Assembly (NCBI GenBank): GCA_963760795.1
Contig: CAVXEP010000016.1
Span: 128,001 to 192,000, forward strand
Direction of reading: 5' to 3'
Source of the DNA: an uncultured delta proteobacterium
GTDB taxonomy: Bacteria; Desulfobacterota; Binatia; UBA9968
Length of the DNA stretch: 64,000 nucleotides
The notes under the pieces are model-generated. The model was not told the origin of the DNA, did not search any database, and was given only the letters and a program-made list of their open reading frames with translations. Positions 17,696 through 27,204 of this stretch are shown piece by piece. Positions within the stretch are counted from its first letter, which is position 1, and every line of letters starts with the position of its first letter. A program made the translations under genes and the position numbers.

Positions 17696-17702
17696 TTCTC
17701 AT

Positions 17703-17737
17703 ACCTTTTAAACCGATCCTGTGAGGTCGGCAAAGGG
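17703..17737 (+). promoter_or_regulatory. PyrR-binding RNA loop (anti-antiterminator)
   Basis: CCTTTTAA-ACCGA-TCCTGTGAGG-TCGG-CAAAGG matches the CUUUAA...UCCNGNGAGGY consensus. Confidence 0.88.
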
Positions 17738-17775
17738 CCAAATGACGGAACTTAATTTAGAATATTGCTACGCTC

Positions 17776-17812
17776 AAAGACCCACTCGGTGATGCCGGGC
17801 GGGTCTTTTTTT
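17776..17812 (+). terminator. Attenuator terminator of pyr leader
   Basis: aaagacccactcgg-tgatg-ccgggcgggtcttt hairpin plus U-tract ending directly at the pyrR ATG. Confidence 0.85.
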
Positions 17813-18373
17813 ATGGCTGAAGAGAAGAAAATTTTACTCGAACGCGACGATATCGGCCGGATGGTCAGCCGGATGGCCCATGAGATCGTTGAGAAGGCCG
17901 CTACTCCAGCTGAGTTGGCTTTGATCGGCATTCGTTCGCGCGGGGTGCATCTGGCGCGGCGGATTGCTCGCAAGATCGGCGAGATTGCCAACGTCGATCC
18001 AGTGGTGGGGGTGATCGATGTTACGCCTTACCGGGATGACAAGTCGCAGGAGCGGCCGATGCCGGCAGTGGGGGCTTTCGAGGTGCAGGTCGCGGTCGAT
18101 GACCGGACGGTGGTGTTGGTCGACGATGTGATTTACCGGGGGCGGACGATTCGTGCGGCGATGGAGGCGGTGGAGCGCTTGGGGCAGCCGAAGCGAATTC
18201 TTGTCGCGGCGCTGATCGATCGCGGTGACCGTGAGCTGCCGATTCGTGCCGATATTGTCGGCAAGAATATTGAAGTTGGCGATCGCCAGCGGGTCAATGT
18301 CTTGCTCGATGAGGCCGACGGCACAGATCAAGTGATTCTGACGAATTGGCAGGGGAGAACCCGGACTGAATAG
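17813..18373 (+). CDS. pyrR: Pyrimidine operon attenuation protein PyrR
   Basis: [41 protein letters not shown] and DRGDRELPIRADIVGKNI motifs. Confidence 0.93.
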   Translation: MAEEKKILLERDDIGRMVSRMAHEIVEKAATPAELALIGIRSRGVHLARRIARKIGEIANVDPVVGVIDVTPYRDDKSQERPMPAVGAFEVQVAVDDRTVVLVDDVIYRGRTIRAAMEAVERLGQPKRILVAALIDRGDRELPIRADIVGKNIEVGDRQRVNVLLDEADGTDQVILTNWQGRTRTE

Positions 18374-18384
18374 CCGCATATGCC

Positions 18385-18445
18385 CGTGATCCCGAGCGAA
18401 TGCGAGGGATCTAAGAGAGATTTCTCCCAGGGGTCGAAATGACAA
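18385..18445. repeat. REP-like palindrome pair
   Basis: cgtgatcccgagcgaatgcgagggatct...agatttctcccaggggtcgaaatgac. Confidence 0.7.
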
Positions 18446-18503
18446 CAATTCCAACCTTGGCGTGGGATCGACGGTTAACGAGTAGCCCTAGAAGTAAATC
18501 ACA

Positions 18504-20456
18504 ATGCGCTGCCTGATTTCCATTGCCGACCTGACCAACGATGAGATCGAGGAGATCTTTGCGCTGGCCGATAGCGCCGACAAGCTGCGCGCCGACAGGG
18601 TCGGCGCCGGGCAGATCATGGCGACGTTGTTCTACGAACCGAGCACGCGCACTCGGCTGTCGTTCGAATCGGCCATGCAGCGCCTCGGCGGCTCGGTGAT
18701 CTCCTGCTCGGATATGAAAGCTTCCTCGACGGCCAAAGGCGAGACCGTGGCCGACACGGCCAAGGTGGTGTCGAGCTACGCCGATGTTTTGGTCGTGCGT
18801 CATTATTGGGACGGCGCGGTGCAGGCGATGGCCGAGCACGCCGATGTGCCGGTGATCAACGCCGGCGACGGCGGTCACGAGCATCCGACCCAGACGCTGT
18901 GCGATCTTTATACGCTGCGCAAGGAGAAGGGCGATCTCAAAGGCTTGACGGTAGTCGTGTGCGGCGATCTCAAGAACGGCCGGACGATCCATTCTTTGGT
19001 TTACGCGCTGGCGCGCTTCGGCGCTAACGTAGTGACCCTGGCCGCTAACGGCATGGAGCTGCCGCAGTATGTGATCGAGCGGTTGGAGCGCGAGTACGAT
19101 TACGGCTTTGCGCCGGTGGCGTCGGGAGACTTGAATTCCGTCGTTACCGAAACCGACGCTTTATATTTAACCCCGAAGCAACCGCATCAGCTGGCGCTCT
19201 ACACCCAGGTGGACAAGGTCATCCAATCCCAGCTGAGCACCCTGGCGACCGGCCTGCGCTATGACGCTTTTTACATGACCCGGAAACAGAAAGAGCGGAT
19301 GAAAGAGGGCACCGCCAACGGCAACTATCCGACCATCGGTCCGGAGTTTCTCCAGGAAAAGCGTTTTCAGGACACCGTGGTGATGCATCCGCTGCCGCGT
19401 GTCGATGAACTGTCGCCGGAGCTCGACAAGGACCGGCGCGGCATCTATTTCAAACAGGCCGCTTACGGTGTGCCGGTGCGCATGGCGCTGCTCGAATTTC
19501 TGTTCCGGCGCAATCGCGCGCAGCAGCGTGCGACGAATATGGCCAACCGTTCCTATCGTAGCCCTGAACCCATCGGCCCCAAGTGCCATAATGCCAACTG
19601 CATTACGGTGAAAGAGCCGGCATCGACGCAGCGGCGCTTTCGCATCTATTTCGCCGAGGATATAGGCGCGCTGATTCTCGGCTGCGACTACTGCGATCAT
19701 CGCTTCAAAGTTGACTACGTCGGCAATATTAAAGCCAAACGCTATTCGTCCTTCGACGCCACGCTCAGCGAGACGTTGCGCGATTGGTGGGACAAGGGCG
19801 AGCTCGCCTTGTTCGACTCGATCAAAGAAGCCGAAGAGTTGGGGTACGAGCCGACGAGAAGTAGCGCGCAACGGATACTCATGTCCGAGACTGAGATCGA
19901 GACTGCGCTTGCCGAGATGAGCCGGCAGATTGTGCGCGACTGCCGCGATCCCGACCGGTTGTTGATTCTCGGCGTGCGCAGTGTTGGCTCGCTCCTGGCC
20001 CAACGCATTGCCAATGCAATCGCAGCGCAGCGCAACCGCAGACCGGAGCTGGGCGAGATCGAAATCTACGGCTCCGGCGATGAACTCCGGCGCATCGGCC
20101 CCAGCGATCCAGATCTCGGACCGCCCAGTCTGAAAGATCGCGAAGTGGTTCTAGTCGACGACGTGATTTTTACCGGCCGCACGGTGAAAAGCGCGTTGAG
20201 CATCATATTTCGCTCCGGCCGGCCACAGTCGGTGCGCTTAGCCGTGCTTGTCGACCGCGGCCACCGCGAGGTGCCGGTGAAGCCTAATTACGTCGGTAAA
20301 AATATTCCGAGCTCTGAAAAAGACCGCGTGCGCGTGCGCTTGCGCGGCGAAGATAGTGAGGCGGCCGACCGCGTAGTAATCTATTCAATTATGAGTCCCG
20401 CGGTGAGTGCGCAGCCAGCATCAACCTCCAGCCGGGACAAGGCGGCGAACCGATAA
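18504..20456 (+). CDS. pyrB: Aspartate carbamoyltransferase fused to PyrI-type Zn domain and C-terminal PyrR/PRTase domain
   Basis: [30 protein letters not shown] and HPLPRVDE (PyrB); CHNANC...CDYC (PyrI Zn site); [11 protein letters not shown]...[18 protein letters not shown] (PyrR), all in one open frame. Confidence 0.93.
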
Positions 20457-20460
20457 TTTC

Positions 20461-21624
20461 ATGAAAGCGATTTTAGCCTTAGCGGACGGCAAATTTTTTA
20501 GCGGTGTAGGCTTCGGCGCCGAAGGCGAAGCCGTTGGCGAAGTGGTTTTCAACACCAGCATGACCGGCTACCAAGAGATTCTCACCGACCCGTCTTATGA
20601 AGGCCAGTTGGTGGCGATGACCTATCCACAGATCGGTAACGTCGGGGTTAATCTTGAAGACGTCGAGTCGCGCCGGCCGTTCATGCGCGGCTTCATCGTT
20701 AAAGATTACACCGCCGAGCCGAGCAACTGGCGCGCCAGCCAGCCGCTGCATGAATATATGCAGGCCAATGGCATTGTCGGCATCTACGGCATCGATACCC
20801 GCGCGCTGGTGCGCCACCTGCGCGATCACGGAGCGCAAGACGGCATTATCTCGACAGGAGCGGCGAGTGCTGAAGAGTTGGCCGCCAAAGCCAAAGCTTC
20901 CCCGGGCCTTGTCGGCCAAGATCTGGTTAAAAATGTTACATGCCACGAGCCGTACGACTGGAATGAAGGCATGTGGCGACTAGTGGGCGGCTACAAGCGG
21001 CGCGATGGCGGCAGCGCTGCCAAGCGCAGCCGCAAGGGCAGCTTCACCGCGCCAAAATACTTCGTCATCGCCTACGACTATGGCATCAAATATAACATCC
21101 TGCGCAATCTCGCCGAGTCGGGCTGCCAGGTGCGCGTGGTGCCGGCGTCGATGCCGGCGAGCGAGGTGCTGGCGCTGAATCCCGATGGAATCTTTCTTTC
21201 CAACGGTCCCGGCGATCCCGACGCGGTTCCCTATGCGAAAGAAAACGTCCAACAGCTGATTGGCAAGAAACCGATCTTCGGCATTTGCCTGGGGCATCAA
21301 ATATTAGGTTTGGCCCTGGGCGGCAACACTTACAAACTCAAGTTCGGCCATCATGGCGGCAACCAGCCGGTGATGGATCTGACCACGCGCAAAGTCGAGA
21401 TCACGTCGCAGAATCATGGCTTCGCCGTCGATGCCGATTCGCTGAGCGGTGCCGCGCAACTGACTCACTTAAATCTCAACGACAACACGGTGGAAGGATT
21501 GGCGCATCGCGAGCTGCCGATCTTTTCCGTGCAGTATCATCCCGAGTCCTCGCCCGGCCCCCATGACGCGAACTATTTGTTTAAACGCTTTACCGACCTG
21601 ATGGCGCAGCACCGAGGCTCGTAG
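20461..21624 (+). CDS. carA: Carbamoyl-phosphate synthase small subunit
   Basis: [35 protein letters not shown] and QYHPE motifs. Confidence 0.98.
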
Positions 21625-21629
21625 CATCC

Positions 21630-24869
<3,240 letters not shown>

Positions 24870-24990: not shown

Positions 24991-27204
24991 ATGGCGATCT
25001 TAAAGCCAGTGGCAGAAGCCGCCAAACTGGTCACGACGAGTTCACAGCCCCGTGCCAATGCGCGCGAATGCTTGCGAGCTCTCGCGACCTCGATTCAGTC
25101 CCTCAAGGGCGTCGGTCCCAAACGGGCGGCGCAACTCGAAGCCAGCGGGCTCGCCACCGTCGAAGACATTCTCTATCACTTGCCGTTTCGCTTTGAGGAC
25201 CGCCGCCAGTTGAAGAAAATCAACCAAGCAGCGCTGGGCCAAGAGGAGAGCTTTACCGGTCAGCTGGTGCTGCTGCAAAACCGGTTCAACCCGCGCCGGC
25301 GCAGTCAGATGCTGTCGGCGGTGCTGCGCGACGACACCGGCACAATTGAATTGATGTGGTATCGGGCGCCAGGTTACTTGGCCAACGGACTGGCTCAAGG
25401 GCAAAATCTACTGGTTCATGGCAAGGTCGAGCAGGGCGCGCAGGCGCGCCTGCGTATCGTCCATCCCGACTTTGAAGTATTGGAGCCCGGTGAAGAGAGC
25501 GCCCATGCGCGTATCTTGCCAGTGTATCTGCGGCCGGGCGGCATGCCGATGTCATTCATGCGCAAGCTGGCGGCGCAAGCGCTCGAGCAATACGCGCAGT
25601 ATCTGCCGCCGGGACTACCGAGCAGCGTAGCGAGCCGCATGCAGCTGGTCGCCATCCCGGAAGCGCTACGCCGATTACACCAGCCGTCGCTGGATACCAG
25701 TGTAAACGCCCTGAACGATGCCAGCTCGCCGGCGCACCGCAGCGTGATCTTCGACGAGCTATTTTATCTGCAACTGGGGTTGGGGTTGCGCAAGCGCTCG
25801 CGCACGCAGAGCCGCGGCCAGCCGGTTCATTTGACTGACGGTAAACTAGTTCAGCGCATGCGCGAATTGTTGCCGTTCGAACTCACCGGCGCGCAGGATC
25901 GGGTTTTTGGCGAGATCGCCGCCGACATGGCGGGCGAGCAGCCGATGCAACGCTTGGTTCAAGGCGATGTCGGTTCGGGCAAGACCATGGTGGCATGGTT
26001 GGCGTCGCTGCGGACCATCGAGCAAGGCTATCAAGCGCTCTGGATGGCGCCCACGGAAATTCTCGCCGAGCAGCACTTTCGCGGTTTGTCGGGCTACGCC
26101 AAGACTTTGGGAGTTACGGCGGCGCTTCTCACGGCGGCGACGACGGCAAAAGAGCGCAAGGAATTGCTGCCGCGCATCGAGCGCGGCGAAGTGCAGTTTC
26201 TCGTCGGCACCCACGCGTTGATTCAAGAAGATATCCATGCGCCGCGCATGGGTCTGGGCGTCGTTGACGAACAGCACCGCTTCGGCGTGGCGCAGCGTTT
26301 GTCGTTGCGCCAACTGGTGGCCGGCAAGGATTCTCTGTCTTCGACCAGCCATGAGCCGCATATGCTGTTGATGAGCGCGACGCCGATCCCGCGCAGTCTG
26401 GCGATGGTGCTGTACGGCGACATGGAGGTTTCCTTCGTCGATGCCATGCCGCCGGGGCGCACACCGGTGCAAACCAAAGTGTTCAACGAACGGGAGCGCA
26501 AGCAGGTTTACACGATGGTTCTCGACCAATTGAAAAAAGGCCATCAAGCCTTTGTCGTCCTGCCGCTGGTCGAAGCCTCCGAACAGCTGCAACAAGTTAA
26601 GGACGCCACCCAGATGGCGGAAAAAATGCGCCAAACTTTGTTCAAAGACTTCGGCATCGGCCTGGTGCATGGCCGCATGAAAGCGGACGAGCGCGACCAA
26701 ACCATGCGCGCCTTTCGCGACGGCAAGTTGGGGATTCTCGTCGCTACCACCGTCATCGAGGTCGGCATCGACATTGCCAACGCCACGGTCATGGTCATCG
26801 AGCATGCCGAGCGCTTCGGCTTGTCGCAGCTCCATCAACTACGCGGCCGGGTCGGGCGCGGCCAGGCGCCGGGCTATTGTTTGTTGGTCAATCGCGGCAC
26901 CGGCGGTGCCGTCGCCGCCGAAAGATTGCGCGTCATGGCCAACGAGAAAGATGGTTTTAAGATCGCCGAAGCGGATTTGAAATTACGCGGTCCCGGCGAA
27001 CTTCTTGGCACGCGACAGTCGGGTTTGGCCGATTTCCGTTTGGCCAATCTGATCCGCGATACCCAGTTGCTCATCGCCGCGCGTCAAGAAGCCTTGGCAT
27101 GGTTGGAAAAGGACCCGCAGCTCAAAAACAAAGACTCCGCGGGCATGCGACAGGTTCTCAAACATCGCTGGGGCAAGCGATTGCAGTTGGGAGCGGTAGG
27201 GTAA
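24991..27204 (+). CDS. recG: ATP-dependent DNA helicase RecG
   Basis: QGDVGSGKT, DEQHRFG, SATPIPR, QLHQLRGRVGRG and DLKLRGPGE motifs. Confidence 0.98.
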   Translation: MAILKPVAEAAKLVTTSSQPRANARECLRALATSIQSLKGVGPKRAAQLEASGLATVEDILYHLPFRFEDRRQLKKINQAALGQEESFTGQLVLLQNRFNPRRRSQMLSAVLRDDTGTIELMWYRAPGYLANGLAQGQNLLVHGKVEQGAQARLRIVHPDFEVLEPGEESAHARILPVYLRPGGMPMSFMRKLAAQALEQYAQYLPPGLPSSVASRMQLVAIPEALRRLHQPSLDTSVNALNDASSPAHRSVIFDELFYLQLGLGLRKRSRTQSRGQPVHLTDGKLVQRMRELLPFELTGAQDRVFGEIAADMAGEQPMQRLVQGDVGSGKTMVAWLASLRTIEQGYQALWMAPTEILAEQHFRGLSGYAKTLGVTAALLTAATTAKERKELLPRIERGEVQFLVGTHALIQEDIHAPRMGLGVVDEQHRFGVAQRLSLRQLVAGKDSLSSTSHEPHMLLMSATPIPRSLAMVLYGDMEVSFVDAMPPGRTPVQTKVFNERERKQVYTMVLDQLKKGHQAFVVLPLVEASEQLQQVKDATQMAEKMRQTLFKDFGIGLVHGRMKADERDQTMRAFRDGKLGILVATTVIEVGIDIANATVMVIEHAERFGLSQLHQLRGRVGRGQAPGYCLLVNRGTGGAVAAERLRVMANEKDGFKIAEADLKLRGPGELLGTRQSGLADFRLANLIRDTQLLIAARQEALAWLEKDPQLKNKDSAGMRQVLKHRWGKRLQLGAVG

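Follow-up and report, generated by a model that had tools for sequence, protein, structure and literature searches.

The window analysed here is a stretch of 64,000 nt from an uncultured delta proteobacterium of the class Binatia (GenBank assembly GCA_963760795.1, contig CAVXEP010000016.1, positions 128,001 to 192,000 of the forward strand). Within it lies a pyr operon whose aspartate transcarbamoylase (ATCase) gene is a fusion. One genuine single gene encodes four domains: a PyrB catalytic chain, the zinc domain of PyrI, a small Ada-like module and a domain derived from PyrR, with the fold of a phosphoribosyltransferase (PRTase). The gene and its parts are as follows, in window coordinates.

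18504..20456, + strand: four-domain ATCase gene, PyrB - PyrI zinc domain - Ada-like module - PyrR-derived domain (650 aa, P0001)
18504..19517, + strand: PyrB catalytic chain, residues 1-338, class-B/archaeal-like by PDB sequence matches, site residues and fold match
19158..19262, + strand: insert of ~35 residues (~219-253) in the Asp domain of PyrB, apparent from split hidden Markov model alignments
19575..19712, + strand: PyrI C-terminal zinc domain (PF02748 over cut-off; C361, C366, C394, C397)
19713..19859, + strand: Cys-less module of probable N-Ada fold, residues ~404-452, assigned from PF02805 matches in relatives, a profile search and a fold search
19860..20393, + strand: PyrR-derived PRTase-fold domain, which keeps DDV-x-x-G-x-T, DRGHR and K599 and is a predicted homodimer through 550-595

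An earlier note on this DNA had described one uninterrupted 650-aa frame holding PyrB, a PyrI zinc domain, a linker and PyrR, with the nucleotide-binding PyrI domain missing. The frame is indeed open for 650 codons (18504-20456, +), and the Cys motif that was placed at about 19584-19694 was found exactly there. The proposed PyrB, PyrI zinc and PyrR parts all stand. The linker is a folded module, probably of N-Ada type, so that there are four domains and not three. The note had overlooked this module, and also the insert in PyrB, the independent pyrR further upstream and its RNA site, and the existence of relatives that have fewer domains.

When the 650-aa protein was compared with Pfam, OTCace_N (3-139), OTCace (257-332), PyrI_C (PF02748; 360-404, 27.6 bits against a cut-off of 23.4) and Pribosyltran (464-602) were all matched. 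Among the NCBIfam models, the ATCase model TIGR00670 scored 291 bits (cut-off 237) and the PyrR model PRK05205.1-5 scored 149.6 bits at residues 455-627 (cut-off 138). The model for the Thermotoga-type PyrBI, PRK13376, reached 94 bits against a cut-off of 800, confined to the PyrB part. The N-terminal PyrI domain (PF01948) was matched neither by the protein nor by anything else in the genome, which is 89 % complete; 7 of the 14 controls matched it. The fusion is the sole ATCase found in this genome, where the other carbamoyltransferase match is 26 % identical. An AlphaFold2 model built from 143 alignment rows has a mean predicted local distance difference test score (pLDDT) of 82.9 and a predicted template modelling score (pTM) of 0.75.

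The reading frame was also compared across genomes and soil contigs. With residues 335-650 as the query, 710 matching proteins were obtained from 8000 scored candidates; most of the 120 listed are ~650 aa long with the identical Pfam set, and those that are named carry the labels Candidatus Binatia or Binataceae. In the class sample, 96 of the 99 matching genomes have a frame of at least 624 aa over the region. The three short exceptions consist of one contig end and two single-base insertions within PyrB, and none lies at a junction. These two insertions account for the split frame in 2 of the 20 class loci fetched. Contig X1 from a public soil run, which could be the source sample of the genome, covers all three junctions (1121 nt over 19380-20500, 21 substitutions, no gaps). 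Contigs from two further soil studies bridge one junction each: X6 that of PyrB and the zinc domain (19098-19647) and X4 that of the Ada-like module and the PyrR domain (19671-19948). Coverage from one RNA run was limited to parts of pyrR and PyrB and says nothing on a fused transcript. All domains of the fusion are under purifying selection. A frameshift or assembly artefact was ruled out by the hundreds of intact homologues, the single-frame relatives, the junction-spanning contigs and the location of the splits inside PyrB only.

Judging by its residues, the ATCase active site is intact. STRT, K78, R99, H127, Q130, R160, R260, Q262 and L297-P298 are invariant; the 13 site positions, assigned by way of the E. 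coli numbering, are unchanged in each of the 45 Binatia locus rows. The best PDB sequence matches of the PyrB part are the archaeal class-B-type chains of M. jannaschii (2rgw) and P. abyssi (1ml4), and the model aligns with the ATCase 5g1n over 295 residues (Z 37.0, rmsd 2.0). The PyrB insert repeats a D-x-(L/F)-Y-x-T strand directly before the R260/Q262 loop and is apparently a tandem duplication of that strand. It is conserved, yet modelled with low confidence (pLDDT <50 at 227-249). It is found in the three- and four-domain forms and missing from 4 of the 5 two-domain forms displayed. The joint appearance and disappearance of the insert and the Ada-like module is a hint that the two may touch. 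At one locus (L100), the insert is reduced and there is no Ada module.

By sequence, the PyrI zinc site is likewise intact, together with its docking residues. The zinc-domain profile matches E. coli PyrI 106-150 at an E-value of 4e-8, and each of the four Cys is present in all 143 alignment rows. All 45 Binatia rows retain N363, E371, Y/F396 and D/E398, the counterparts of N111, E119, Y140 and E142 in E. coli PyrI. The top fold match of the zinc domain is 2be7_D (Z 5.6).

The module that follows resembles the metal-binding domain of N-Ada (PF02805; 1u8b, 1eyf), with which it shares the pattern YVG...F.S..EA...GY.P and probably a small fold. Of 15 three-domain relatives, 8 matched PF02805 at E<=0.1, one of them over cut-off (27.4 against 23) and seven more weakly; this protein and two other Binatia ones gave no match. 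A profile search with the module region retrieved proteins with tandem Ada_Zn_binding repeats. Among 48,161 entries, N-Ada 1u8b was the second-ranked fold match (Z 4.7, rmsd 3.1, 56 aligned) and N-Ada 1eyf the fourth (Z 4.1), both at middling Z, and L9-N and RNase H1-N were among the fold neighbours at low Z. A Foldseek search with a 105-residue model gave no match under an E-value of 0.001, and the ESM Atlas gave no usable match. Unlike N-Ada, the module is Cys-free and would serve here as an internal adaptor. No conserved Cys was found in residues 404-452, and because all Cys are absent the module would have neither a zinc site nor a methyl acceptor.

The C-terminal domain has the fold of PyrR, the attenuator and uracil phosphoribosyltransferase (UPRTase) known from B. 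subtilis (1a3c), B. caldolyticus (1non) and M. tuberculosis (1w30), and it passes one PyrR equivalog cut-off. The model superposes on 1w30 over 164 residues (Z 24.4, rmsd 2.1). To compare residues, 50 distinct fused Binatia domains from five families were set against 59 free PyrRs from the same set of loci. The free proteins consist of ~46 Binatia operon copies, those of family f3, of Dehalococcoidia and of one Armatimonadota, and the third copy of this genome. In helix 1, R467, R471 and H474 are present in 95, 95 and 80 % of the free proteins, whereas the most frequent residue of the fused domains at these positions reaches 24, 34 and 28 %. E475 is conserved in 90 % of the free proteins and is replaced by Q (70 %) in the fused domains, and E478 is likewise conserved in the free form (80-95 %) and not in the fused one. 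The Arg of the K/R-T/S-R-G loop, R494, is found in 98 % of the free proteins against V (34 %) in the fused domains. R525, D526 and D527 of the YRDD motif stand at 100 % each in the free proteins; the most frequent residues of the fused domains there are G (56 %), D (60 %) and E (46 %). R562 is lost as well. The lost positions align to R15, R19, H22, E23, R42 and YRDD of B. subtilis PyrR. The basic and His residues of helix 1 are presumably the RNA-binding face of PyrR, and YRDD and the TRG Arg presumably serve PRTase catalysis.

Other positions are kept or newly fixed. D552, D553, V554, G558, T560, D584, R585, G586, H587, R588, P591 and K599 are kept at 96-100 % in the fused domains, and in the loop for ribose phosphate or phosphoribosyl pyrophosphate (PRPP) D552, D553, V554, G558 and T560 stand at 100 %. 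GPQR at the junction, H587, R573, P594, Y596, P602 and Y627 are newly fixed. From these alignments, the fused domain is without the residues that PyrR uses for RNA binding and catalysis and keeps the ribose-5-phosphate loop. Values of dN/dS (NG86) are 0.08-0.34 for the fused domain in 12 of 12 pairs and 0.05-0.22 for the free pyrR in 10 pairs.

When a tree was drawn from 24 fused and 37 free rows (near-duplicates excluded), the fused domains formed one branch with full support (100/100), within which the family groupings agree with those of the free operon pyrR. The fused domain and the free pyrR of this operon are 34 % identical. This identity and the separate, old clade rule out a recent tandem duplication of the neighbouring pyrR.

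When two copies of residues 352-634 were submitted to structure prediction, the self-pairing score was 0.53 against 0.00 for the best control; 20 of 30 solved pairs reached this mark, as did 1 of 23 single chains. The runs agreed in at least 93 % of contacts, with a pLDDT of at least 72. The predicted interface is confined to the PyrR domain (550, 561-569, 575-579 and 588-595). The PyrR-derived domains are thus predicted to pair with each other; since PyrR dimers have already been solved, the prediction may draw on those structures and show likeness, not binding.

Relatives with fewer domains were also observed. A graded set was taken from a genome scan (best 80 of 600+ matches). Among the matches listed, some have PyrB with a separate PyrI (Clostridia and others), 17 rows are PyrB-Zn forms of ~360 aa (Poribacteria, Armatimonadota, Alistipes and some Clostridia) and 31 rows are PyrB(+insert)-Zn-Ada forms of 440-480 aa (Planctomycetota, Alphaproteobacteria and Dehalococcoidia). 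The PyrB-Zn loci are L101, L104, L107-L109, L112, L114, L116, L123, L133-L137 and L141, and no adjacent pyrI was seen in the nine displayed. The PyrB-Zn-Ada loci are L067-L098, L102 and L150-L173. In a quick-search PyrB tree of a subset (76 rows), the three- and four-domain forms fall into a single group (98). The PyrB-Zn forms are scattered among those with PyrB and PyrI and so probably have more than one origin; it seems that the allosteric domain was lost repeatedly while the zinc domain was kept. Together, the relatives suggest a stepwise assembly of the four-domain form.

A second four-domain lineage was found (P0178, P0285-P0297 and the more distant P0196). The motif (F/Y)RDD occurs in 19 of the 223 full-length proteins retrieved, a count inflated by the targeted search. 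In this lineage, RDD and the loop Arg are kept in 14 of 14 aligned members and the helix-1 residues are missing, which fits a loss of RNA binding first and of catalysis later. We infer this order from the alignments, and UPRTase activity in the second lineage is plausible on the same residues. The branches of the lineage are long, and its position outside the Binatia fused domains is weakly supported. Support for grouping the two four-domain lineages in the PyrB tree is also weak (83), so a common origin is at most tentative. At the one locus of the lineage seen among the matches listed (L164:3432-5459), no free pyrR was found in the 3.4 kb upstream, nor was there an Rfam match upstream.

In the Binatia sample, the Zn+Ada segment was found in 99 of 301 genomes and in 5 of 20 families (f1 25/28, f2 4/4, f6 1/1, f10 52/52 and f12 16/16). 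It was not found with a single-protein query in the 199 genomes of the 15 other families, and a second query gave the same pattern. In the relatives set, the whole protein lies in one frame in 21 of 24 same-genus genomes, 4 of 5 genomes of family f2 and none of the 11 genomes of family f3. The gene is split or cut in two of the three remaining same-genus genomes; the third (G003, 10 contigs, 92 % complete) lacks an ATCase-level match. Among 400 phylum-wide genomes, the Zn+Ada pair was seen outside the class only in G324, in a 480-aa frame. A fusion present throughout the class or phylum was thus ruled out. In five families without the fusion (one genome each), pyrR and a small PyrB were present in 5 of 5 and pyrC was seen in 4 of 5. 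The small PyrB is 31-34 % identical to the fused PyrB and has no zinc or PRTase tail. It is of the DHOase (dihydroorotase)-associated kind found in operons of the type pyrR-pyrB-pyrC-carA-carB and occupies the same operon slot, which indicates that within this slot one type of PyrB has taken over from the other. In family f3 (L026, L029), a plain pyrB stands beside a pyrD-like gene, ~11 kb from pyrR, with ABC-transporter and electron transfer flavoprotein (ETF) genes between pyrB and pyrR.

The remainder of the operon in the window is as follows.

17701..17812, + strand: PyrR-binding leader RNA with a terminator-like hairpin and U-run, operon attenuator (Rfam RF00515, 55.4 bits against a gathering threshold of 54)
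17813..18373, + strand: free pyrR, canonical (PRK05205.1-5, 192 bits; ATG at 17813)
18380..18463, no strand given: dispersed palindromic repeat of ~80 bp between pyrR and the fusion (39 blastn matches in the genome)
20461..21624, + strand: carA (TIGR01368, 511 bits), which starts 4 nt past the fusion stop
21630..24869, + strand: carB (1079-aa open reading frame (ORF), named from sequence and position; order conserved in related loci)

The hairpins of the leader RNA were seen with RNAfold, and the Rfam PyrR site exceeded gathering in 3 of 12 related loci too. The free pyrR keeps the R/R/H/E residues of helix 1, SRG and YRDD and is likely to be both RNA-binding attenuator and UPRTase. It lies directly upstream of the fusion in all ~45 Binatia loci with flank sequence. 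A third PyrR, canonical-looking with TRG and YRDD, lies outside the pyr operon on contig C13 (L060:1222-1773 of G000). It groups with the pyrR of family f3 and is flanked by amidohydrolase-like and substrate-binding-protein genes. The repeat at 18380-18463 is REP-like, is not specific to the operon and has no Rfam match at gathering; a depth spike and loose ends were observed at 18380/18463.

The earlier note took the lack of a pyrC in the cluster as fitting an enzyme independent of dihydroorotase (DHOase). This argument fails. At each of the 16 loci fetched from families f6, f10 and f12, a gap of ~1.3 kb separates the fusion from carA, and in 8 of the 10 inspected this gap holds a DHOase-like ORF with the motif HxHxR...DHAPH. 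A DHOase-like gene likewise follows directly after the three-domain form in Dehalococcoidia. In 13 f1/f2 loci, carA comes after the fusion with no such gap, and the absence of pyrC next to the fusion is specific to these two families. Because pyrC adjoins the same fusion in three families, gene order says nothing for DHOase independence. Such independence is nevertheless likely for this ATCase, since its PyrB sequence is class-B-like. The best matches of the genome to an operon-type pyrC are DHOase-family genes elsewhere (26-31 % identical). These are the two DHOase-family genes of the genome, L056:1444-2814 and L057:1447-2895; both lie in catabolic-looking neighbourhoods, and either may serve pyrimidine synthesis.

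Among known ATCases, the class B holoenzyme of E. coli and archaea (PyrB6-PyrI6; 1d09, 2rgw/2yww, 1pg5) has the closest solved catalytic chains. It has in common with the fusion the PyrI zinc domain, including the four Cys and the residues for docking, and may also share with it the logic of two trimers plus three dimers. The fusion differs in being one chain with no ATP/CTP-binding PyrI N-domain or separate regulatory chain, in having Ada-fold and PyrR-fold domains after the zinc domain, and in the ~35-residue insert before the 240s loop. A Thermotoga maritima ATCase with fused catalytic and regulatory parts is reportedly the subject, by its title, of Chen et al. 1998. The single-polypeptide design is common to this PyrBI (PRK13376) and the present fusion; T. 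maritima matches PF01948 in the control set, whereas this genome does not. A 2015 review also gives catalytic and regulatory parts of T. maritima ATCase in one polypeptide, and the three prokaryotic quaternary types that it lists include none of the present build (PMC4581275). In the literature listings searched, which covered only a minor part of the subscription papers, no paper on a PyrB-Zn-Ada-PyrR architecture was found. By its domains and residues, the fusion fails to fit class B and the Thermotoga PyrBI (no PyrI N-domain) as well as PyrR (RNA-binding and catalytic residues lost). Compared with free PyrR, the fused domain retains the PRPP loop, DRGHR and a predicted dimer, and differs in being joined to an enzyme, in lacking the helix-1/YRDD residues and in forming a separate clade.

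ATCase is a model allosteric enzyme, and the fusion probably works like class B. We lean slightly towards a mechanism in which dimers of the PyrR domain replace the PyrI N-domain both as cross-link between trimers and as nucleotide sensor. PyrB would form the usual trimer, each zinc domain would dock on the carbamoyl-phosphate domain as in E. coli, and the Ada-fold module would act as a rigid adaptor. Two trimers would be linked by three PyrR-domain dimers to give a hexamer that corresponds to c6r6, or the assembly would be a larger cage if the dimers pair further. Binding of a ligand in the dead PRTase site, be it uridine monophosphate (UMP), a different nucleoside monophosphate or PRPP, would shift the dimer and so change activity. 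The free upstream PyrR would separately attenuate transcription, and two copies of PyrR would then mean two layers of control. The sensor role is proposed because, past the zinc domain, a PyrR-type dimer was the sole self-pairing element to be found, and it conserves the loop for ribose phosphate but has lost the catalytic one. UMP/UTP and PRPP are PyrR effectors according to PMC6524683. The earlier note had already put forward a PRTase co-opted for regulation, an idea that the kept loop, the purifying selection and the predicted homodimer support.

Several observations weigh against a sensor. PyrB-Zn and PyrB-Zn-Ada relatives without a PRTase domain are widespread, so that the zinc domain needs no sensor behind it. 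In 40 % of the fused domains, W takes the place of R559 in the phosphate loop. The positions of the E. coli T-state links Y165 (N/H/F/R here), K143r (mostly H) and E239 (in a variable loop) are not conserved. The operon is already under PyrR attenuation.

The sensorless two- and three-domain relatives and the unconserved T-state contacts also speak for a scaffold only, in which the PyrR-derived dimer would cross-link or stabilise trimers, or anchor DHOase or carbamoyl-phosphate synthetase (CPS) partners, and carry no nucleotide signal. The newly fixed R573, P574, H587, P594, Y596 and P602 flank or fall in the predicted dimer interface, as a scaffold would have it. However, D552-D553, G558 and T560 are 100 % conserved over five families and belong to the ligand loop, not to the named interface residues. 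We consider a pure scaffold unlikely.

The earlier note offered, as an alternative, a bifunctional enzyme in which an active C-terminal UPRTase would link salvage with de novo synthesis; the activity could also be that of another PRTase. The PRPP motif is intact, no upp over cut-off was found in the genome, and (F/Y)RDD and the loop Arg are present in all 14 aligned members of the second lineage, with no free pyrR in 3.4 kb upstream at L164. For this gene the alternative is unsupported and decidedly improbable: YRDD and the loop Arg are gone here and in the 50 Binatia domains, and the two canonical PyrR copies of the genome (17813 and contig C13) retain them.

We are equally doubtful of a coupling to gene control, in which the fused domain would pair with the free PyrR, or the fused domain and the Ada module would bind RNA, so that the enzyme level feeds back on the operon. 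The free pyrR is directly upstream in ~45 Binatia loci, R585, R588 and K599 are kept, and the Ada fold is common to nucleic-acid-binding N-Ada and, at low Z, L9-N and RNase H1-N. On the other hand, the helix-1 residues of free PyrR are lost from the fused domain, the two PyrRs are only 34 % identical and the Ada-like module has no conserved basic face. Finally, an artefact or a decaying read-through fusion, to which only the split frame in 2 of 20 loci would point, is hardly conceivable, as both splits are single-base insertions in PyrB, hundreds of homologues are intact, all domains are under purifying selection and independent contigs bridge the junctions.

Returning to the sensor-dimer mechanism, a broader proposal can be made, which we judge to be evenly balanced. 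The fusions may be an unrecognised structural class of ATCase, built stepwise from PyrB-Zn-Ada by addition of a PyrR paralogue. A former RNA-binding attenuator would have become a dimerising allosteric subunit that gives direct UMP/PRPP feedback through the PyrI zinc lever. Its living intermediates would be the sensorless PyrB-Zn-Ada forms, a lineage with a working UPRTase and the sensing-only Binatia form. If it is true that a PyrR-derived dimer drives the zinc-domain lever, this would be a natural exchange of one sensor for an unrelated domain, with the transmission element conserved. The series PyrB+PyrI, PyrB-Zn, PyrB-Zn-Ada, PyrB-Zn-Ada-PyrR (active-looking) and PyrB-Zn-Ada-PyrR (degenerate) would make gain, loss and replacement of allostery testable in real proteins. 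In databases, these fusions are mis-annotated as plain PyrB, or as PyrR/PRTase.

Farther downstream, recG (24991-27204) follows carB in the window and in the f1/f2 loci fetched. At another locus (L052:1079-5311(-), G279), carA and carB appear as one frame of 1410 aa.

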